The notes under the pieces were generated by a model. It worked only from the letters and a program-made list of their open reading frames with translations, was not told where the DNA came from and did not search any database. Shown piece after piece: positions 37,938-62,016 of a DNA stretch of 63,241 nt. This stretch comes from Candidatus Falkowbacteria bacterium RIFOXYD12_FULL_34_57 (GTDB taxonomy: Bacteria > Patescibacteriota > Patescibacteriia > Patescibacteriales > UBA12075), in NCBI GenBank assembly GCA_001780285.1, contig MFGN01000006.1, positions 1 through 63,241 on the forward strand, read 5' to 3'. The position numbers and the translations under genes are program-made. Every line of letters starts with the position of its first letter. Position 1 is the stretch's first letter.

Positions 37938-38251
37938 AATATTTTTAGCTTACAAAATTTTAACCTCCAATCCCCGGGGTTCGCCCAAGCACTTTTCGGA
38001 TAATTAAAATCTTAATTATTATTTATAATTATACAATAATTCTAATTATTAAGCAAAATAAAAAATCGGGTTATTACAACCCGAAATTTGATTTAAAAAA
38101 TTACTTTTTTGCTCCTAATCCAGCCCTAATGGATACTTTTTATTTTAAATTCCTGCCCCCCACAATCAAAACAAAAGTTATTTCTATCTATTCTCTGTTT
38201 TGAAGATTTCTTCTTTATATTACAATGCCAATCTCCTTTATTGACAAAAAA

Positions 38252-38518
38252 TTATTTAAAACCCTTTATATCTTCTTCTTTTATTTCCCATTCACACCAC
38301 AACTTAATGTTTACTAGTTCAAACATAGAAAGTTCGGGACAATTTTTTATAATTTGGTCATATACCATTTTATTATCCGGAGGAAATACGCGAATCCCTA
38401 TAAACCCTTCAACTGGCGGCACTTTTTGTTGTCGATTATTTTTACCTCTAAATATCGCTGTATACTTAACCTCAGCAACCATGTTTTTCTGTGTTCCTAT
38501 CCCCTTCTGGTTTTTCAT
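38252..38518 (-). CDS. Small hypothetical protein (88 aa)
   Basis: AAGGAG lies 8 nt before the ATG at 38518. Its TAA stop is followed in frame by 41 more open codons (see findings). A terminator lies at about 38064-38090. Confidence 0.6.
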   Translation of the reverse strand: MKNQKGIGTQKNMVAEVKYTAIFRGKNNRQQKVPPVEGFIGIRVFPPDNKMVYDQIIKNCPELSMFELVNIKLWCEWEIKEEDIKGFK

Positions 38519-54029: not shown

Positions 54030-55145
54030 TTATCTGGTAGCCCCACTGTAAGTTATTGCTTGCATAGTGTTCCACTCATCGGTGGTCCTCGGTAATTTTC
54101 CAAAAATATCCTTAAAAATCTTTATTCCTTGTCTTTCCGAATTCAAATTTCTATTTTCGGCCTTTTGACGAAGCCCATAAGCCATAACTTTCACGGCCGC
54201 AGCATCATTTGAATTATTCATATCCGGAAAGCGCAAATAAATCTTCTTAAATTGCTCTTTGGCTTTATTTTCCGCTTCTTCGCTAAATCTGCTGGGCCAG
54301 CGTCCATTAGCAATTTTAATTGCATCAGCCAATTCGGTTTCATCTTCCGGTAATTTACCAAAAGCCTCTTTAAATGAATACATCACGGCGGCCCGCTCTC
54401 CCTCTCCAAGCTTCTTGGTATTATCATCCACCCCATAGGTGATAAATTGATTAATAGAATTCTGCATAGCTTCGGTTACAACAGATACGCCGATTAAAAG
54501 TTTTTGCAAATGCTTAATTTGATTTTGTTGTTCCTTAACCAAACTTCTGAGCTCTTTTAGTTCAGACAATATATCATCTAGCTGGCTATTTTTTAATTTT
54601 TCCGCATTTTTTTCTATTTTTTGAATCTGCTCATCTCTCGTACATTCTCCATAATAAGCTTTTTGTATACCCTTGCTATCTAAAACACATTTATTAGAAT
54701 AAGTTTTTCCATCTTTTCCGCATACCGGAGTATAATCCATAGTACAGGCTGTTGAATTATCTCCAATAGCAACTTGGATTTGATTACTATAAATTCCGCA
54801 TTTACCACCCAAGTATTCACAAACACGAACATGATAGACACCGCTGCCTGTAAACGCAGTTACTGTATCGTGATTGTACTCGGGGCTGGAAGAATAGTTA
54901 TACTTATCTCCTTCTCGCAAAGGATAAGTTGGATTTTCATTTTTTGACCAAACCAATTTAAACCCCTGAGATGAATAACCGTCCGCAACCCAGCTGACAT
55001 TCGCGCCATCCGCAGTAATAATAATTGACTTTACACTGTTTGTATCTGTTGCACTAACTCCTTCATTATAATTACCAAGCGCAGGCGATGAACTCAGCAC
55101 AAAAATAAAACAAGCGACTCCTAAAATTTTTTTTAAATTCTTCAT
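54030..55145 (-). CDS. Secreted protein with a Kazal-like domain
   Basis: 371 aa. Signal peptide is [25 protein letters not shown] beta-rich N-domain is followed by [35 protein letters not shown] (Kazal core Y.PVCG.DG.TY.N.C), then a coiled coil and a helical C-domain. Confidence 0.75.
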
Positions 55146-55195
55146 AGTTATTATTTATAATTAATTTATTAACCGCTCAATATCAAATATATTTA

Positions 55196-56278
55196 TTACA
55201 AAGAAATAATAAATTTCTTTAAAATATTATAAAATTTTTCTATCTGAGATATATCCACCCACTCATCTTGACCGTGTATGTTTCCTGAATCAATTTTAGT
55301 CAAAATAACCGGAATATTTTTTTCACAAAAGAATCGCGCATCAGACGCTCCGGTTTCCCTGATGAATTTTATTTTTTTACCCATCTCTTTTTCCGCTGTC
55401 TTCTTATAATCCTGAATATATTTATTTTTCATATCCTGTTCAAAATAAAAACCATTCACTAAAACTTCAAAATTATCCGTAATTTTTTTTATCTTCTGTA
55501 AAACAATTTTTCTTTCTTTTTCATTCGCCAATCTGATATCTAAAAACATCTCCGCATAATCCGGAACCTTGTTGATTGCTCCTCCTCCTGAAATTTTGCC
55601 GATATTCAAGCTGTTTTTCCACTGGTTTTTTTTAATATCCGGAATTTCTTTTTTAATCTGAAAATATATTTTCATTAATTTCTCTACGGCATTATCGCCC
55701 AAAAAGGGCCGAGAGCCATGAGCGGATATGCCCCGAGCCCACACCCTGATATGCATAATACCCTTTTCCGCCATAACCACGGTATCCAAACCGGTTCCTC
55801 CGTCGGGAATAATAGCGCAATTCGAACTATAACCGGCTTTCTTAAGCAAATAACCGATTCCATTCTCACCGCCCACCTCTTCGTCGGTAGTCAGAATGAG
55901 TCCTATATTCGGTTTTTCTTTTACCTTTGAAAAATATTTCATGATCTCTATCATTACGGCACAAGCCGTTTTCATATCGCCCGATCCGCGTCCGCAAAGC
56001 TTATGGCCGATTATTCCGGGACAAAAATCATTTTTTTCAGCCGGCACCACATCCAAATGTCCGTTTAAAAATAATTTTGGATTTTTCGTTTTTTGCAAAG
56101 TAATAATCAAAGAAGGAACATTCTTGTAAATAATTTCCCGGACATAAACATCACACTCGGCAAACTCCTGATAAACAAACTCAATAATTTTCTTTCTAGT
56201 CCGAAAATTATCATGCGTGCTTTCAAATCTAATTAATTTTTTAGTCAAATTTATTATTTGTTTGGTATTTTGATTCAT
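55196..56278 (-). CDS. M20-family metallopeptidase (ArgE/DapE/CPG2-like)
   Basis: 360 aa. Has LNGHLDVVP, GRGSGDMK, LTTDEEVGGENG and GISAHGS. Confidence 0.85.
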   Translation of the reverse strand: MNQNTKQIINLTKKLIRFESTHDNFRTRKKIIEFVYQEFAECDVYVREIIYKNVPSLIITLQKTKNPKLFLNGHLDVVPAEKNDFCPGIIGHKLCGRGSGDMKTACAVMIEIMKYFSKVKEKPNIGLILTTDEEVGGENGIGYLLKKAGYSSNCAIIPDGGTGLDTVVMAEKGIMHIRVWARGISAHGSRPFLGDNAVEKLMKIYFQIKKEIPDIKKNQWKNSLNIGKISGGGAINKVPDYAEMFLDIRLANEKERKIVLQKIKKITDNFEVLVNGFYFEQDMKNKYIQDYKKTAEKEMGKKIKFIRETGASDARFFCEKNIPVILTKIDSGNIHGQDEWVDISQIEKFYNILKKFIISL

Positions 56279-56371
56279 AGTTTTTTAACTTATGGATATT
56301 AGCTTGTTGGTTTATAAAAATAAAAAAACCAGAAGCTAACACCTAAGTTAATCTTATCAAAATTTAAGATT

Positions 56372-56400
56372 AAAAAAAAGGGTAAATTATTTTACCCCTT
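56372..56400 (-). terminator. Intrinsic terminator after ATP-grasp 1
   Basis: Minus strand: aaggggtaaaataatttaccc followed by tttttttt. Confidence 0.8.
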
Positions 56401-56406
56401 ATTTTT

Positions 56407-57555
56407 TTAAATCATTTTTTGAATAGCTTTTTTATAATATTCTATTTCATCTTTTTCTTGAGCAACAATTAATATCCCGATAGTGCCATTGATTGCGCAA
56501 CCCCAGTTAAAAACGACCAGCCCGCTCTTGCGCTTCGGATCATACTCTAAAGATCGGTCAAAATTCCAATCATTCAAATTGGTAAAATCCACATCATAAC
56601 CGCGTCCATGCCAGAATTTAGCGCCCAGTCTTTGAGCTATAAAAAACGGATAAGAAGCGCCGGTAAAACGAGGATTGCATTCCAAAAGCTGATACTGATT
56701 ATTATCGTAATTATCCTTTACAACCACCATATCAATTCCAAAGTGTCCCTTCATGCCGCATTCAAACATATATTGAGCCAAAACATCCGTAACATTTCTG
56801 GGATCATATTCAATCGGACCATAATTTCCTTTGTGCACGTCTCCTTTTAAAATCTGCGCCGTAGTGGCTACAAAATACAATTGTCCGCCTGTTACCCGAT
56901 ACTGAGAACTGATAAAACAATCCGAATCTGCTTTTTCCTGAATCTGGAACCTGACTCCGGGCTTTATTTTAGCCAATTGTTCGGCCAATTCCAAAAAATG
57001 CGCGCATTTATGCACCCCCATTCCGGAAACCGATCTGGAAAGCTTAAAATAACAAGGAAAGGGAAAAACATGCAAATCATTGATTTCTTCCACGGAGTTA
57101 AACAAAAAAGTTTTCGGCGTAGGCAATCCTAATTCCCGGGACTTTTTGATAAAAAAATTTTTTTCATTCATTCTGTCGGCAATACTAAACCATTTTTCAT
57201 CCGGACGAATACCATGAATTTTTTCGCCGAAATAAAATACGGAAAAATCATAATCACCATAATCCTTCAAAACATCAAAATCCTTGTCCCAAATAATATT
57301 TTCCGAACATTTTAAACCGATGCGGCGGAAATGATCCCTGACCCAATCATAATTCGGTTTTAAAATCGGAGAAAACTGAATAATATCTTCCCTGTGGGAT
57401 ATTCCCAAAACCCTGCCGGAATAAGCATCCAAACCGGAAACCTTATCAAGCTCTTCTTCTGTGGAGCAACCCCGAAGATCATGATTAATAATAACCGGCC
57501 TTCTTGAAATATCCCCCTCTTTTTGATTCCCGCAACACTCTCTAATCTTAATCAT
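56407..57555 (-). CDS. ATP-grasp fold ligase, paralog 1 (substrate unknown)
   Basis: 382 aa. Has CYFKLSRSVSGMGVHKC (Lys plus Gly-rich loop), RFQIQEK and the ECNPRFTGASYP (E-x-N Mg site). GGAGG lies 9 nt before the ATG. Clearly paralogous to 57961..59148. Confidence 0.8.
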   Translation of the reverse strand: MIKIRECCGNQKEGDISRRPVIINHDLRGCSTEEELDKVSGLDAYSGRVLGISHREDIIQFSPILKPNYDWVRDHFRRIGLKCSENIIWDKDFDVLKDYGDYDFSVFYFGEKIHGIRPDEKWFSIADRMNEKNFFIKKSRELGLPTPKTFLFNSVEEINDLHVFPFPCYFKLSRSVSGMGVHKCAHFLELAEQLAKIKPGVRFQIQEKADSDCFISSQYRVTGGQLYFVATTAQILKGDVHKGNYGPIEYDPRNVTDVLAQYMFECGMKGHFGIDMVVVKDNYDNNQYQLLECNPRFTGASYPFFIAQRLGAKFWHGRGYDVDFTNLNDWNFDRSLEYDPKRKSGLVVFNWGCAINGTIGILIVAQEKDEIEYYKKAIQKMI

Positions 57556-57803
57556 TTACTTTTTCCTCCTTTTGTTGGTATTTTTAGTTAAATTTATAAA
57601 ACTTATATATTAAGCTACTATTTTAAAAGAACAAAAAAACCGATTGCTTTTAAACAATCGGTTTTGGTATTTGAATTTTTAATTCACTAATTTACATAAC
57701 CAAAACCGATCCAACTAACAGTTGAATCAAAATAATAATTAAATTCTGGTTGAATATATTTTTCATATTGGATTTATTATAACACAGCCATAAAAAAAAT
57801 CAA
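57556..57803 (-). promoter_or_regulatory. Promoter plus leader-ORF transcription attenuator L1 (Ile/Leu-rich)
   Basis: TTGATT (57798-57803), 16 nt, TGtTATAAT (57776-57781), 9 nt, ATG. S0 is AACCAGAA (57744-57751). S1 is AUCGGUUUUGGU (57699-57710). S2 is ACCAAAACCGAUUG (57655-57670). The terminator is 57633-57665 with U7. Confidence 0.7.
57692..57766 (-). CDS. Leader ORF L1 (24 aa)
   Basis: MKNIFNQNLIIILIQLLVGSVLVM. Its stop codon directly follows segment S1. Confidence 0.5.
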   Translation of the reverse strand: MKNIFNQNLIIILIQLLVGSVLVM

Positions 57804-57827
57804 GAGGCATCTGTTTTTGATGCCTCT
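57803..57827. terminator. Hairpin terminator after ATP-grasp 2 / element C
   Basis: agaggcatc-tgttttt-gatgcctct with T/A runs on both sides. Confidence 0.7.
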
Positions 57828-57838
57828 TTTATCTTTTT

Positions 57839-57965
57839 CAAGAAAAGCCTGAAAGAATTTTTGATGTCCGCCTCAGGCGAAAGCGTAATGAATAACAAAA
57901 TATTTAATGTTAAACATTTTTTTACTTGATAAATAGTAAAAAATAGAAATTTCTATACGATTAAA
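57839..57965. repeat. Intergenic repeat element, decayed copy C
   Basis: Reads aagaaaagcctgaaagaatttttgatgtccgcctcaggcgaaagcgtaatgaataa...taaacatttttttacttgataaatagtaaaaaata...tttctatacgattaaa. It retains the ends and the AT-rich block of copy B. It lacks one GC hairpin and the whole CCCCC/GGGGG module. Its end overlaps the stop codon of ATP-grasp 2. Confidence 0.8.
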
Positions 57966-59148
57966 TTAATTTTTCAAATTTTTCCTTAATCCGCAATATT
58001 TCCTCCTCGTTATTTCCGAGAAAAACCACGCCGATGCTGCCATAGAGGACACTTCCCCAGTTAATAACCACCACTCCGTTCTTTTTAGTCCGATCATAAG
58101 CCAACTCGCTCAAATCCAAAAAATCCAAACTGCTATGATTAATATCATAAGACATACTGTTCCAATTTCTGGCACCAAGGCGTCTGGCTACCAAAAGCGG
58201 GTATGAAGCACCGGTATATCTAGGATTACATTCCAACATTTTATACTGATTACCGTTATTAGTTTTAATTACGGCCACATCTATACCAAAATAACCGCGC
58301 ATTCCATTCTTATACATATAATTTGCTACCGGATCGGTAATTGGGCGCAAATCATACGACACCGGCCCCCGATTTCCCTTATAAATAGCGCCGTCCAGAA
58401 TCTGTTCGGTGGTAGCCACAAAACTCAGCCCCGCATCAGAGATATAATATTGCGCGCTGGCAAAAACATCTGTTCCGGCATCTTCCTGAATCTGAAAACG
58501 GCAACCATCCTTCACATTTTCTAAATATCGACAAACCTCATCCATGCTTTTTACTGTCTCTGAGCCCATACCGGAAATAGATTTAGATAGTTTCAACCAT
58601 TGTTTTTTGGAAAAATCAATATTTGCATTATCTAATTCTGCACGAGAATTAAAACAAGTGGTTTTCGGAATAGCTAAACCTAGTTTTTGGCACAAAATTA
58701 TAAAATCATTTTTTTCATTCATTTCTTTAACAATTTGATGCCAAGAATCGTTTGGTATAGACTCATGAGCTTTATCACCGAAGAAAAAAACAGATAACCC
58801 ATAATCACGAAAATTCTTAAGCAAATTGCCGGTAGTTACAAAACTATCATTCCATATTATACTTCCGGCAACTTCCAGACCCACTTCCCGATAATGGCTG
58901 CTTATCCATGGATATAAGCCTTTTAAAGCTTGATTAAACTGTACAACATCTTCTTTGTGCGTAATGCAAAAAACTCTGCTGGCATGACCGCGCACGCCAA
59001 GCTTTTCGGATAATTCTTCTGAATCAGCATACTCATTAGACTCTTTTGATACTTCCCTGATAGGGTAATCACCGACTGCGTCAGTAACTTCATGGTTGAT
59101 AACCATTCCAATCTCTCCGTCCGTCCTGTGGTTTAATACTTCACTCAT
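57961..59148 (-). CDS. ATP-grasp fold ligase, paralog 2 (substrate unknown)
   Basis: The track ORF starts at GTG 59151. The ATG at 59148 (MSEVLNH) lies 6 nt after AAGGAG. Has WLKLSKSISGMGSETV, RFQIQED and ECNPRYTGASYP. Confidence 0.8.
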   Translation of the reverse strand: MSEVLNHRTDGEIGMVINHEVTDAVGDYPIREVSKESNEYADSEELSEKLGVRGHASRVFCITHKEDVVQFNQALKGLYPWISSHYREVGLEVAGSIIWNDSFVTTGNLLKNFRDYGLSVFFFGDKAHESIPNDSWHQIVKEMNEKNDFIILCQKLGLAIPKTTCFNSRAELDNANIDFSKKQWLKLSKSISGMGSETVKSMDEVCRYLENVKDGCRFQIQEDAGTDVFASAQYYISDAGLSFVATTEQILDGAIYKGNRGPVSYDLRPITDPVANYMYKNGMRGYFGIDVAVIKTNNGNQYKMLECNPRYTGASYPLLVARRLGARNWNSMSYDINHSSLDFLDLSELAYDRTKKNGVVVINWGSVLYGSIGVVFLGNNEEEILRIKEKFEKLI

Positions 59149-59405
59149 CACTTTCTCCTTTTTTGAAAAATTAAATTGATAATATATTACTAAAAAATTT
59201 CAAGGAACAAAAAATATAACTAAAAAACCGATTCTTTTCAAATCGGTTTTTTGTATGTCATTTAAAATTTTAATTTAAATTTTTGCACACACCAAAACCG
59301 ATCTGCTAAAAAAGTAGAAAAAGAAAAATGAATAGGTTTTGGTGATTAAATTTTTCATAAATTTATTATTATATACATGATAGCAAAAAATATAACAAAA
59401 GTCAA
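59149..59405 (-). promoter_or_regulatory. Promoter plus leader-ORF transcription attenuator L2 (Phe-rich)
   Basis: TTGACT (59400-59405), 17 nt, TATCAT. A TATAAT (59368-59373) lies 9 nt before the ATG. S0 is CACCAAAACC (59335-59344). S1 lies within 59286-59304. S2 is 59241-59257. The terminator is 59222-59250 with U6. Confidence 0.75.
59275..59358 (-). CDS. Leader ORF L2 (27 aa)
   Basis: MKNLITKTYSFFFFYFFSRSVLVCAKI. Confidence 0.55.
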   Translation of the reverse strand: MKNLITKTYSFFFFYFFSRSVLVCAKI

Positions 59406-59443
59406 TAGTTTTTGATTACTTTTTATATGTTTTTGCTAATATT

Positions 59444-59473
59444 AAAAAACTCGCCTTATTTATAAAGCGAGTT
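59444..59473 (-). terminator. Intrinsic terminator after 59488..59862
   Basis: Minus strand: aactcgc-tttataaataag-gcgagtt followed by ttttt. Confidence 0.7.
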
Positions 59474-59487
59474 ATTTCTGAAAAAAA

Positions 59488-59862
59488 TTATTTATGAAGA
59501 GAAACAATTTCCTCTCCAATGGTTGTAAAATTGGCATCCAGCCATTCCGGAAGCCTTTCGTTTAATTCCCGGATGCATTCTTCTTTTTCCAAATCTTGAT
59601 GTTTTTTATAAATTTCCCAAAATATCTTAAGGCCTGTGTGAGTATTACTGATAATTCTTATAGCTACCTCTTGGTTTGGAACAATATTTTTTTCTTCATG
59701 ATCCACACAGGAAAATTTTACAACATATTTATCGTTTAAGCTGATAAACCCGGATTGCAATAAAAATCTATCCACATCTTTTAACTTAAGTTTTTCAAAA
59801 AGCCTCTCAAACATAGCGACTTTCATCAATTTTTCTGTCATTACCTTCTTCTTTTCTGTCAT
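59488..59862 (-). CDS. Hypothetical protein (124 aa)
   Basis: AGGAGG precedes the ATG. The start region contains an 18-nt direct repeat (59831-59848 and 59852-59869) that duplicates the SD-like GAAGG plus ATGACAGAAAA. Confidence 0.55.
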   Translation of the reverse strand: MTEKKKVMTEKLMKVAMFERLFEKLKLKDVDRFLLQSGFISLNDKYVVKFSCVDHEEKNIVPNQEVAIRIISNTHTGLKIFWEIYKKHQDLEKEECIRELNERLPEWLDANFTTIGEEIVSLHK

Positions 59863-59889
59863 TACCTTCCTCCTTTTAATTTTCTGTAT

Positions 59890-60351
59890 TTATTTCCAAA
59901 ATATTTGAACGTGTAAATTCTTGATGCCGTGTTCGTGTTTTCTGCAAACCCCCCTGATACCCAAAAGATTGTTCTGAATAGCCCCGGAAAAACCGGGAAA
60001 ATTTTTCAAATCTCCGCTTTCCAGCAAAGCCCTCTCTTCTTCTTTAAGACGCCTGCTGGTCTCAATCCGGATAAAAAAACCATTTTTTTCTTCTTTTTCT
60101 TTCTGTGATGCCAGCACATATATGGGCGTACCGGCCGGAGTTTCAAGATAGGGATTCAGGAAACAATCCCATTCTTCCCTCATGCATCGAAAAAGACCGC
60201 TGATATTTTTTAATAAATCATTCAAAAATTCATCCGGCAAATACCGATACTGGCTGCGCATATCATCTACATAATCTGCAATCTTTCCCTTCAATCCATT
60301 ATCCTGATACTCAGGAATACTGATTATTTTAATAAATGCCTGTTCTGCCAT
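59890..60351 (-). CDS. Hypothetical protein (153 aa)
   Basis: TAGGAGG lies 5 nt before the ATG. No recognisable motif. Confidence 0.55.
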   Translation of the reverse strand: MAEQAFIKIISIPEYQDNGLKGKIADYVDDMRSQYRYLPDEFLNDLLKNISGLFRCMREEWDCFLNPYLETPAGTPIYVLASQKEKEEKNGFFIRIETSRRLKEEERALLESGDLKNFPGFSGAIQNNLLGIRGVCRKHEHGIKNLHVQIFWK

Positions 60352-60444
60352 TTCTACCTCCTATGGTTAATAATTAAGTTAATGTACAAATAAAAATATA
60401 TAAAAAACTTTAAAAACAAAGTTCAAAATATGTTAGCACAAAAA

Positions 60445-62016
60445 TTAAATTGTGTCAAGTCTGGGAAAAAGCGAATCCCCGGGCTGTGCCTTTGTATCAC
60501 TTTTTAATAAGCCAAATTTAATATTATCTTCCAAATTCTTGGAAATCTCTTCATGAAAATCAAGCCCCAGTCTTGTTATTATTTTTTCGGATACTTCCGG
60601 CATAAAAGGAAAAAGCATCAGGGCCACATGCCTCAATCTCTCTAAAATATTATACATAATAATACCAGTATCTTTATTTCCTTCCTTAATCATTACCCAT
60701 GGCTGATGCTCGGTAATATAGCCGTCTAAATATTTTTGTTCATTCATAACCACTTCCAATGCCTTGTCAATTTCAATATTTTTCATATGATTTTTATAAT
60801 CTTTCCAATTCTTATTAATGTCTTTATTTAATATGCGTCCGCCCCATTTTTTTAATTTTTCTTCAGTATCCGGCCTTTCAACGCATACGGGAATACTTAA
60901 ACCAGCCAGGCGCATTTTGTCTGCCAAGGTTATAGAACGCGCAACTAAATTACCAATACCATTAGCTAAATCAGCATTGAACTTCTCATTGAATTTTTCC
61001 CAAGAAATATCACCATCGCGACCAAAAGTAGCAGCGCTCATTAGCAGGTAACGCGTACCATCCACGCCGTATTTTTGTACCAAATCTCCAGGCGCAATTA
61101 CATTACCGATGGATTTACTCATTTTCTGCCCGTCCACCAAAAAATAACCGTGCACGAAATATTTTTTAGGTAAAGGAATTTCCAATGCCAAAAGCATTGC
61201 TGGCCAGATGCTGGCATGTACCCGCAAAATATCTTTAGCCATTAATTGCACATCAGCAGGCCACATCTCCGGTACTTTCTTCGGATCTCCGGTCCAGCCG
61301 ATTCCGGTTAGGTAGTTCAAAAACGCCTCCATCCACACATAGGCCGTATGTTCTCTGTCCCACGGAAGCTCTATTCCCCACTTTATATTCTTGCGAGAGC
61401 AAGCAATATCCGCAAGACCATTATTTTTATAAAAACTCAATACTTCATTTTTGCGGGTTTTGGGACGAATCTTAAATTCATCGCCCTCAATTTTTTTAAG
61501 AAGCTCGTCTTGAAAAGCGGAAAGTTTGAACATATAACAATCTTCTTTCATTTCCTCCGGCTCCGTGCCATGATCCGGGCACTTGCCGTCTACCAAATCT
61601 TTCTCGGTTTTATACTGTTCACAACCGACACAATAGAGCCCCTTATACTCTCCTTTGTAAATAAAACCTTTATCATACAAATGCTGCAAAGCTTTTTGTG
61701 AAGCTTTTATATGGCGCTTATCAGTTGTGCGAATAAAACCATCATTGGTAATAGCCAAATTATCCCAGACTAACTCAAATTTGGCGACAAGCTCATCTGT
61801 AAACTCCTGCGGAGATTTTCCTGCCCTTTTGGCATACTCAGCTATTTTAGCTCCATGCTCATCCGTCCCTGTCAGAAAAAATGTCTTATCTCCAACCATC
61901 CGGTGAAAACGCGCTAAAACATCAGCAGCGAGAGTAGTGTAAGTACTGCCAATATGCGGATCAGCGTTTGCATAATATATCGGAGTGACTACATAAAATT
62001 TATTTTTTGAACTCAT
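60445..62016 (-). CDS. metG: Methionine--tRNA ligase (short form, no C-terminal tRNA-binding appendix)
   Basis: 523 aa. Has ADPHIGSTYT (HIGH), a CVGCEQY...CPDHG zinc knuckle and KMSKS. Its own TTGCAT-17-TACTAT promoter lies at about 62040-62068. Confidence 0.93.
   Translation of the reverse strand: MSSKNKFYVVTPIYYANADPHIGSTYTTLAADVLARFHRMVGDKTFFLTGTDEHGAKIAEYAKRAGKSPQEFTDELVAKFELVWDNLAITNDGFIRTTDKRHIKASQKALQHLYDKGFIYKGEYKGLYCVGCEQYKTEKDLVDGKCPDHGTEPEEMKEDCYMFKLSAFQDELLKKIEGDEFKIRPKTRKNEVLSFYKNNGLADIACSRKNIKWGIELPWDREHTAYVWMEAFLNYLTGIGWTGDPKKVPEMWPADVQLMAKDILRVHASIWPAMLLALEIPLPKKYFVHGYFLVDGQKMSKSIGNVIAPGDLVQKYGVDGTRYLLMSAATFGRDGDISWEKFNEKFNADLANGIGNLVARSITLADKMRLAGLSIPVCVERPDTEEKLKKWGGRILNKDINKNWKDYKNHMKNIEIDKALEVVMNEQKYLDGYITEHQPWVMIKEGNKDTGIIMYNILERLRHVALMLFPFMPEVSEKIITRLGLDFHEEISKNLEDNIKFGLLKSDTKAQPGDSLFPRLDTI

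Follow-up and report, generated by a model that had tools for sequence, protein, structure and literature searches.

A candidate isoleucine/leucine leader-peptide attenuator upstream of an ATP-grasp ligase gene in Candidatus Falkowbacteria, with mostly aromatic relatives

Introduction

Most known cases of leader-peptide attenuation come from operons for amino-acid biosynthesis in Proteobacteria, Actinobacteria and a few Firmicutes. Patescibacteria are mostly amino-acid auxotrophs. Here we describe a putative attenuator of this kind, with a leader peptide rich in isoleucine and leucine, located in front of an ATP-grasp ligase gene (ligase 1) of Candidatus Falkowbacteria bacterium RIFOXYD12_FULL_34_57, a member of the Patescibacteria. 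The sequence under analysis, referred to below as the window, is the whole stretch of 63,241 nucleotides covering positions 1 to 63,241 of contig MFGN01000006.1 (assembly GCA_001780285.1). A full-text literature search returned no paper linking leader-peptide attenuation with Patescibacteria or the Candidate Phyla Radiation (CPR).

Among described systems, the branched-chain attenuators offer the most direct comparison: ilvGMEDA, ilvBN and leu of Enterobacteria, ilvD of S. aureus with its Leu-rich peptide (PMC5794164), and ilvBNC of Corynebacterium (PMC11857589, PMC10272879). Each consists of a short open reading frame (ORF) with a run of Ile/Leu(/Val) codons and of RNA regions that pair as 1:2, 2:3 and 3:4, so that antiterminator and terminator are mutually exclusive, and induction follows when the cognate charged tRNA is scarce. 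The pheA and pheST attenuators, with leaders pheL and pheM (PMC3082878), are built on phenylalanine codons. With respect to the regulated gene, the hmrA/ldmS operon of Staphylococcaceae encodes the M20D peptidase HmrA and the L-Asp-L-Met ligase LdmS and is placed under CodY/CymR or an S-box riboswitch (PMC9486568); its authors noted the paradox of an amino-acid-consuming enzyme being induced by starvation (PMC9486568). Finally, graspetide and microviridin precursors are small ORFs that accompany genes for ATP-grasp macrocyclases.

Results

A leader ORF and four pairing segments precede ligase 1

The window holds two units, each composed of a leader and a ligase gene: unit A (winA), with ligase 1, and its sister unit B (winB), with ligase 2. 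All features of unit A lie on the minus strand and are listed here in the direction of transcription, after the terminator of the preceding unit.

57802..57828, minus strand: terminator of the upstream ligase-2 unit, a 10-pair stem with 5 GC pairs, then GATTTTTTTT
57776..57803, minus strand: sigma70-like promoter of unit A, TTGATT-16-(TGt)TATAAT, with an extended -10 TG, score 10/12
57692..57766, minus strand: leader ORF of 24 codons, MKNIFNQNLIIILIQLLVGSVLVM, stop TAA, from the ORF translation
57743..57751, minus strand: S0 (region 1), AACCAGAAU, codons 6-8, the partner of S1 in untranslated RNA (anti-antiterminator), from minimum-free-energy structures
57716..57742, minus strand: regulatory run, codons 9-17, TTA ATT ATT ATT TTG ATT CAA CTG TTA (LIIILIQLL), the proposed stalling site
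57699..57711, minus strand: S1 (region 2), GAUCGGUUUUGGU, codons 19-23, its 3' end 4 nt short of the stop
57657..57669, minus strand: S2 (region 3), ACCAAAACCGAUU, also written ACCAAAACCGAU(U), the exact complement of S1
57629..57665, minus strand: intrinsic terminator (regions 3:4), a 13-pair hairpin AAAACCGAUUG-UUUAAAAG-CAAUCGGUUUU (hairpin 57636..57665), then U7 and a U-rich tail
57565..57569, minus strand: Shine-Dalgarno sequence GGAGG of ligase 1
56407..57555, minus strand: ligase 1, the predicted regulated gene, a 382-aa ATP-grasp enzyme with an L-amino-acid/peptide ligase-like fold

Since the ligase-2 unit ends in its own terminator and unit A starts from its own promoter, unit A would form a separate transcript; its -35 box shares positions with the U-tract of that terminator. 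Only 9 nt separate the -10 box from the leader ATG, leaving the leader mRNA nearly leaderless, and no Shine-Dalgarno sequence precedes the leader ORF. A preliminary description of this locus, made from the sequence, had given the same promoter, 9-nt gap and ATG, here found at 57803..57776 on the minus strand, and the same ORF at 57692..57766 with codons 9-17 reading L I I I L I Q L L. It had also placed the stop UAA directly after S1, followed by GGAGG and the ligase ATG. The latter two stand, with the ATG at 57555, but the stop is set 4 nt apart from S1.

Predicted folds of the leader RNA are mutually exclusive. The S1:S2 antiterminator is a duplex of 13 bp, one more than first described, with an energy of -18.8 kcal/mol; when the upstream segment was subjected to dinucleotide shuffling, 0 of 1000 shuffles gave a duplex as strong. 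In its 3' part, S2 doubles as the 5' arm of the terminator, whose stem was initially given as 11 bp before U7 and is found here as 13 pairs before the same U7. In the free leader RNA, S0:S1 (extended by an inner hairpin) and the terminator form together in both the minimum-free-energy and the centroid structures, with a z-score of -2.86 for the former; the pairing of S0 (codons 6-8) within S1 had likewise been proposed beforehand. We then modeled the ribosome as a footprint, masking either 29 nt around an A-site at codon 13 or the region at the stop codon. Masking at codon 13, within the Ile/Leu run, yielded the 13-bp S1:S2 antiterminator and no terminator, and masking at the stop codon covered S1 and brought the terminator back. 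The same switch between masked folds was seen equally in unit B and in four related loci described below (L005, L009, L095 and L103).

These elements suggest the following course of events. Transcription would start a few nucleotides before the ATG of the 24-codon leader ORF. Without translation, S0 would pair with S1, leaving S2 free for S3, and the resulting terminator would stop transcription at the U-tract 57639..57633. With charged tRNA-Ile and tRNA-Leu plentiful, the ribosome would run to the UAA, 4 nt beyond S1, and cover S1, again allowing the terminator to form. When Ile/Leu charging is low, the ribosome would stall in codons 9-14 (LIIILI), covering S0 and exposing S1; S1:S2 would then form before S3 is made, the terminator would be blocked and RNA polymerase would read through into ligase 1.

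The codon run and its pairing partner are exceptional within the window

The preliminary description had held that an Ile/Leu enrichment not significant against random 24-codon hydrophobic ORFs would count against attenuation. Among the 390 ATG ORFs of 15-45 aa found in all six frames of the whole window, only the unit A ORF reaches 8/9 Ile/Leu and only the unit B ORF reaches 8/9 Phe/Tyr/Trp. When the window was simulated with an order-2 Markov model, none of the 11,569 resulting ORFs attained either value (0/11,569), and the binomial probability of at least 8/9 Ile/Leu, calculated from the window's own usage (Ile + Leu = 17.3%), is 6e-6. The enrichment is thus significant. It is also specific to the reading frame, with Ile/Leu scores of 8 in the ATG frame of unit A and of 4 and 1 in the other two. 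Aromatic scores at the related loci are 5-8 in the ATG frame and 2-5 elsewhere, the run being in the ATG frame at every locus.

The combination of elements is equally rare. Around each of the 58 terminator-like hairpins that the two strands of the window contain, we looked for a small ATG ORF with its end nearby and for an antiterminator of -12 kcal/mol or stronger; units A and B alone pair such an ORF with a strong antiterminator (n = 58). The second-highest aromatic small ORF of the window, MPISFIDKKLFKTLYIFFFYFPFTPQLNVY (38225-38317, plus strand, 7/9 Phe/Tyr/Trp), overlaps the start of a 126-aa ORF, and the hairpin scan detected no terminator or antiterminator there.

Related loci share the architecture and not the sequence

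Matches to the ligase family were found in 341 stretches of a species-representative genome collection and in 410 stretches of metagenome contigs. The best 80 of the 341 genome loci belong to Patescibacteria, cyanobacteria and gammaproteobacteria, the last mostly Chromatiaceae. Examination of 148 distinct upstream regions confined the leader and terminator units to deep-branching, low-GC members, several of them annotated as Patescibacteria. About ten other ligase loci display the same four-segment architecture built from unrelated sequences. Their leaders are mostly rich in Phe, Tyr and Trp, with one tandem-Trp leader and one of mixed Ile/Leu/Phe composition.

Unit B (winB): MKNLITKTYSFFFFYFFSRSVLVCAKI
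L004: ...HILWVFFYFFFGKG...
L005/L093: MSLSKTPQNIAFYFYWFFGLPRRAVFCGVLTK
L009: MDYAKNNWFFFFSRH
L094/95/97: MNYTKNNW(L/F)FF(D/N)FFS...
L103/104: ...ANFYWFGFFYKFP...
L151: MIINSKNWFYFNFYGFFRKTGFCVSSNT
L040/L173: MIIKRVIQFIACFLALFLRVDFGWNNYGL (mixed)
L176: MFVATLHIAQNNWWNSLSREASFVLCGEVTI (tandem Trp)

In L176 (1190-1350), the tandem-Trp ORF (…AQNNWWNSLS…), an antiterminator and a GC-rich terminator precede the ligase homolog in what appears to be a Trp-type variant of the design. Another locus, L025, combines a terminator and an antiterminator with an ORF lacking an obvious codon run and was left unclassified.

Pairing segments are wholly different between clades; L004, for instance, uses AAACCUCC, GGGGAGGUUU, CCUCCC and GGGAGG. 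Even so, the antiterminator beats at least 95.6% of shuffles at 11 of 11 loci. A sigma70-like promoter (score of at least 7) precedes 10 of the 11 leaders checked, none of which has a Shine-Dalgarno sequence, and the ATG follows the promoter directly at every locus checked. The distance from the end of the -10 box to the ATG is 6 nt in L103, L151 and L173, which suggests truly leaderless mRNAs. Leaders range from 15 to 42 aa in length, have no motif common to all 11 and, between clades, share no alignable sequence.

A leader-peptide attenuator is expected to preserve its architecture, frame and codon run while its sequence diverges, which is not expected of a ligand-binding riboswitch or a peptide product, and this bears on two alternatives. 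An RNA switch that binds a protein, a tRNA or a ligand, with the ORF being fortuitous, would employ the same terminator/antiterminator logic, as riboswitches and T-boxes do, and the ORF has no Shine-Dalgarno sequence. Against such a switch, only tRNAs reach the Rfam gathering score in the window and 13 related loci, with no leader family (Leu_, Phe_, Trp_, Thr_ or His_leader) and no T-box among the matches; the loci have no conserved nucleotides, merely the architecture and an in-frame codon run; and the ATG sits directly behind the promoter throughout. We therefore consider a fortuitous ORF very improbable. Two sub-threshold Rfam matches, to the trpB motif (27 bits, threshold 59) and to Trp_leader (18.7 bits, threshold 41), were rejected because they were driven by a generic hairpin and terminator.

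The other alternative, named in advance by the preliminary description, is that the ORF specifies a stable hydrophobic peptide of the membrane, for example a type I toxin, that has no part in controlling the ligase. The unit A peptide does contain a 16-residue hydrophobic stretch, LIIILIQLLVGSVLVM. The plus strand between 57600 and 57800 yielded no antisense promoter, the homologous leaders do not resemble transmembrane segments (e.g. MDYAKNNWFFFFSRH) and can be as short as 15 aa, and it is the position relative to S1 and the terminator that is conserved, not the sequence. A toxin or similar peptide finds no support here and is hardly to be expected.

Several observations at related loci concern elements other than the attenuator itself. 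In L009 (2700-2890), L094 (600-885), L095 (1189-1474) and L097 (623-908), the stretch from the attenuator terminator to the ligase start holds a further structured segment, conserved and 190-230 nt long. This segment comprises a 23-bp hairpin and a multi-stem element, has 6 pairs with compensatory changes and gave no Rfam match; the probable ligase start in this clade is a TTG located ~72 nt upstream of the ATG initially used. In the gammaproteobacterial metagenome-assembled genome L073 (2764-2916), a Phe-rich small ORF, MYPTDFRSFFFTFKYQG, precedes the ligase without a terminator, and AACUCCUGA can pair with UCAGGAGUU, which includes the Shine-Dalgarno sequence of the ligase; this may be the attenuator in a translational form. 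Loci of the Chromatiaceae type carry a conserved small ORF, MPKS(T/A)R(D/E)LID(Q/K/R)CDRFRR(T/A/S/N)(F/Y)L(D/E)..., of 25-46 aa, ~190-400 nt upstream of the ligase start (L011, L014, L019, L030, L049, L106, L109, L114-L116, L120 and L133). It is unrelated to the Patescibacteria leaders and may encode a partner protein or a substrate.

Unit A appears to derive from a phenylalanine-type unit

Ligase 2 and its leader lie immediately upstream of unit A and provide the closest comparison.

59222..59405, minus strand: sister unit B, with promoter 59405..59377, leader ORF 59358..59275 (MKNLITKTYSFFFFYFFSRSVLVCAKI) and terminator 59252..59222
57961..59151, minus strand: ligase 2, 396 aa, a paralog 41% identical to ligase 1

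The two leaders can be aligned as DNA: they have the MKN start in common, an identical S1 and similar S2 and S3, and they differ precisely in the regulatory codons. A neighbor-joining tree built from 150 family members groups the two ligases as sister paralogs within a clade (L005/L007, L151, L104 and L004) in which all other leaders are aromatic. The Ile/Leu leader thus looks like a derived retuning. The most parsimonious history would be that a Phe-type attenuator-ligase unit was duplicated in tandem and that Ile/Leu codons then took the place of Phe codons, with retention of the pairing segments; the changes from TTT to ATT, TTA or TTG would each take one nucleotide step. Judged by these sequence relationships, unit A is a lineage-specific derivative. 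A search with the ligase 2 protein returned two distant matches only. A cluster mate at 90% identity or above, OGF27302.1, comes from Falkowbacteria RIFOXYB2_FULL_34_18. A relative on record as a protein without a contig (P0002) is 96% identical.

This history opens the most serious rival explanation, namely that unit A is a relic in which the Phe-type RNA switch has been kept while the Ile/Leu codons result from AT-biased decay of the Phe run, so that it senses general translation or coupling, or nothing at all. The genetic code would favor such an outcome, as a single mutation turns Phe TTT into ATT, TTA, TTG or CTT, and about half of its non-synonymous neighbors encode Ile or Leu. A pure Ile/Leu leader was seen at no other locus examined, and several positions that are otherwise conserved have unique substitutions in ligase 1, which departs at 18 positions from the consensus of the ligases with aromatic leaders. 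Decay is difficult to reconcile, on the other hand, with the replacement of every Phe codon of the run while the ORF, the position of the stop and the four pairing segments stayed intact. The S1:S2 duplex of unit A is a perfect 13 bp and better than that of unit B, three identical consecutive ATT codons along with 8/9 Ile/Leu exceed what random decay would be expected to leave, and all family-invariant residues are kept in ligase 1. On balance, we regard a relic as unlikely and a functional Ile/Leu attenuator as the better account.

Ligase 1 resembles amino-acid and peptide ligases and is followed by a peptidase gene

Against Pfam, ligase 1 gave a weak match to ATP-grasp_3, and it had no NCBIfam equivalog match. 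Its AlphaFold2 model (mean predicted local distance difference test score, pLDDT, of 88.4) was compared with known structures using Foldseek. The top matches were 8ynd (a Streptomyces ATP-grasp peptide ligase), 7r8p/7r8q (S. aureus SAOUHSC_02373, i.e. LdmS, the L-Asp-L-Met ligase), 8yi6 (BesA) and 3wvq (PGM1), with E-values of 1e-17 to 1e-12, TM-scores of 0.65-0.75 and identities of 11-16%; for characterized ligases the identity is 13-16%. By its modeled fold, ligase 1 resembles the L-amino-acid/peptide-ligase branch of the ATP-grasp superfamily.

As these neighbors include two ligases acting on ribosomal peptides, PGM1 (3wvq) and the Streptomyces enzyme (8ynd), the small ORF could itself encode the substrate or precursor, in the manner of peptides that are made by the ribosome and modified after translation (RiPPs) or in PGM1/PGM2 style, with the hairpin acting as a leaky terminator that sets the ratio of precursor to enzyme. 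RiPP loci usually have this layout, with a small ORF directly in front of the ATP-grasp gene. The leaders have no common recognition motif or core, however, only a codon run, and the variation in length from 15 to 42 aa is equally out of character. The unit A peptide (0 Asp, 0 Glu, 0 Thr, 1 Ser and 1 Lys) offers neither the acidic residues nor a Ser-rich or Thr-rich core for ester or amide cross-links. Pairings S0:S1 and S1:S2 in register with the ORF would serve no purpose in a precursor, and the cyanobacterial and gammaproteobacterial homologs lack such an ORF. A precursor role is accordingly quite unlikely, and leader-peptide attenuation accounts better for the small ORF.

Downstream of ligase 1, two further features are relevant to the extent of the regulated unit.

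56377..56400, minus strand: terminator-like hairpin AAGGGGTAAAATAATTTACCCTTT, then T-rich sequence, directly after the ligase-1 stop and before the M20 gene
55196..56278, minus strand: M20-family (ArgE/DapE-like) metallopeptidase, the conserved downstream partner of the ligase in Patescibacteria

The hairpin at 56400..56377 makes co-transcription and co-regulation of the peptidase uncertain in this genome. The M20 peptidase gene follows the ligase gene in the window, L005, L006 and L009, with a gap of 2 nt in L009. Elsewhere, the downstream neighbor is a C26 peptidase (L004:6333-7040), an Asparaginase_2-family protein (PF01112; L173:4208-5131 and L177:4165-5076) or an M1 aminopeptidase (cyanobacteria; L087:9566-12193). 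Across the family, pairing of the ligase with a peptidase or hydrolase seems to be a general theme.

The wider surroundings are partly conserved. The gene order methionyl-tRNA synthetase (MetRS), small ORF(s), ligase, M20 peptidase and Kazal-domain protein is common to window positions 54030-62016 and L006 (19-6841), and the L004 ligase lies directly downstream of MetRS (L004:3226-6248). The Kazal-domain protein of the window (54030-55145, minus strand) is a secreted-looking protein of 371 aa with a Kazal-type serine-protease-inhibitor domain (Pfam E-value 3e-11), encoded downstream of the M20 peptidase, and the arrangement in L006 is similar. The interval from MetRS to unit B contains two ORFs (59488-60351, minus strand), one of 124 aa and one of 153 aa, that gave no Pfam match.

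Weighing the evidence for attenuation

Computational analysis establishes which elements unit A has, how significant they are statistically, that the RNA has alternative folds, that the codon run is frame-specific and that the architecture is conserved. Exclusive folding, significance, frame specificity and shared architecture all support the Ile/Leu leader-peptide attenuator originally put forward for this locus. We estimate the probability that unit A is a ribosome-mediated leader-peptide transcription attenuator of ligase 1, and possibly also of the M20 peptidase, at about 0.78.

A number of points weigh against this assignment. Translation of the leader, stalling under starvation and read-through are all steps that we infer, as is the identity of the sensed amino acid with the ligase substrate. 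The lack of a Shine-Dalgarno sequence means that translation of the leader ORF would have to rely on leaderless or otherwise Shine-Dalgarno-independent initiation. Induction of an amino-acid-consuming enzyme during scarcity of those very amino acids is physiologically paradoxical. In L004 and L151, equilibrium folds with a stalled ribosome retain the terminator, and a kinetic argument is needed there. No double compensatory changes were found among the leaders of L009, L094, L095 and L097, since these sequences are too similar to one another. The syntenic Falkowbacteria locus L006 has one ligase and neither a leader ORF nor an attenuator; L099 and L122 also lack a leader. Lastly, no orthologous locus with a pure Ile/Leu leader was present among the loci examined (L001-L003 are identical copies), and the Ile/Leu specificity is consequently read from a single genome. 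On conservation, a lack of which the preliminary description had also listed as counting against its reading, the outcome is divided: the four-segment architecture is kept at about ten loci, and the Ile/Leu content is not.

Discussion

Our analysis points to a classical regulatory mechanism operating in a lineage of the Candidate Phyla Radiation, where it would control an amide-forming-type ligase instead of a biosynthetic enzyme. Unit A is well supported as a predicted attenuator at the level of sequence and appears to belong to a previously undescribed family, seen mainly in Patescibacteria. It is notable for its host lineage, for a leader ORF of the kind that lacks a Shine-Dalgarno sequence or is leaderless, and for its predicted ligase-peptidase target.

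The amino acid of the leader may serve as a label for an orphan ligase family, as it would name the amino acid whose shortage induces the gene: aromatic in most Patescibacteria, Ile/Leu for ligase 1. Should the leader track the substrate, the predicted substrates would be Phe, Tyr or Trp for ligase 2 and Ile or Leu for ligase 1. A separate amino-acid tuning of each paralogous ligase is consistent with the data and is, at this point, speculative. Regardless of substrate, units A and B would represent a natural case of regulatory retuning in which single-nucleotide codon changes after duplication altered the signal and preserved the RNA switch. The locus also bears on the LdmS/HmrA paradox, that is, on why a dipeptide-forming ligase would be induced when an amino acid is scarce. 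A broader scenario, which we advance tentatively and hold to be somewhat less probable than not, is that a Patescibacteria family of Shine-Dalgarno-less, often leaderless attenuators couples tRNA charging (Phe/Tyr/Trp, Trp or Ile/Leu) to a module of ATP-grasp ligase and M20 peptidase, and that one Falkowbacteria copy was retuned together with the specificity of its ligase. The leader would then read out the substrate of an uncharacterized enzyme family and point to a dipeptide-based homeostasis or scavenging pathway.

Compared with the known systems, unit A is closest in logic to the branched-chain attenuators, with which it has in common the short ORF, the Ile/Leu run, the three pairings with exclusive antiterminator and terminator and, as a prediction, induction when the cognate charged tRNA is scarce. 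It differs in having no sequence or Rfam similarity to them, in its target (an ATP-grasp ligase, not a biosynthetic operon), in its Candidatus Falkowbacteria host and in its nearly leaderless ORF. Runs of the FFFFYFF type, similar to those of the pheA and pheST attenuators, are carried by unit B and most of the related loci, and unit A probably descends from such a unit. In contrast to pheL and pheM, unit A has exchanged Phe for Ile/Leu, many of its relatives mix Phe, Tyr and Trp, and the regulated gene is a different one. Graspetide and microviridin precursors likewise stand immediately upstream of an ATP-grasp gene, but unit A shows no conserved leader motif and no core of Thr/Ser/Lys with Asp/Glu, and the fold of ligase 1 is nearer to L-amino-acid/peptide ligases than to the graspetide macrocyclase MdnB (5ig9), to which it has a weak, generic sequence match (E-value 0.005). 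On the side of the regulated genes, the hmrA/ldmS operon is similar in its ATP-grasp L-amino-acid-ligase fold (7r8p, 7r8q; TM-score ~0.7), in the M20-family peptidase partner and in a starvation-responsive, amino-acid-specific terminator switch in the 5' leader, which for unit A is a prediction. Ligase 1 and LdmS share ~16% identity, and the sensor proposed here is a leader peptide that reads tRNA charging instead of an S-adenosylmethionine riboswitch or a repressor, with the gene order being ligase and then peptidase.

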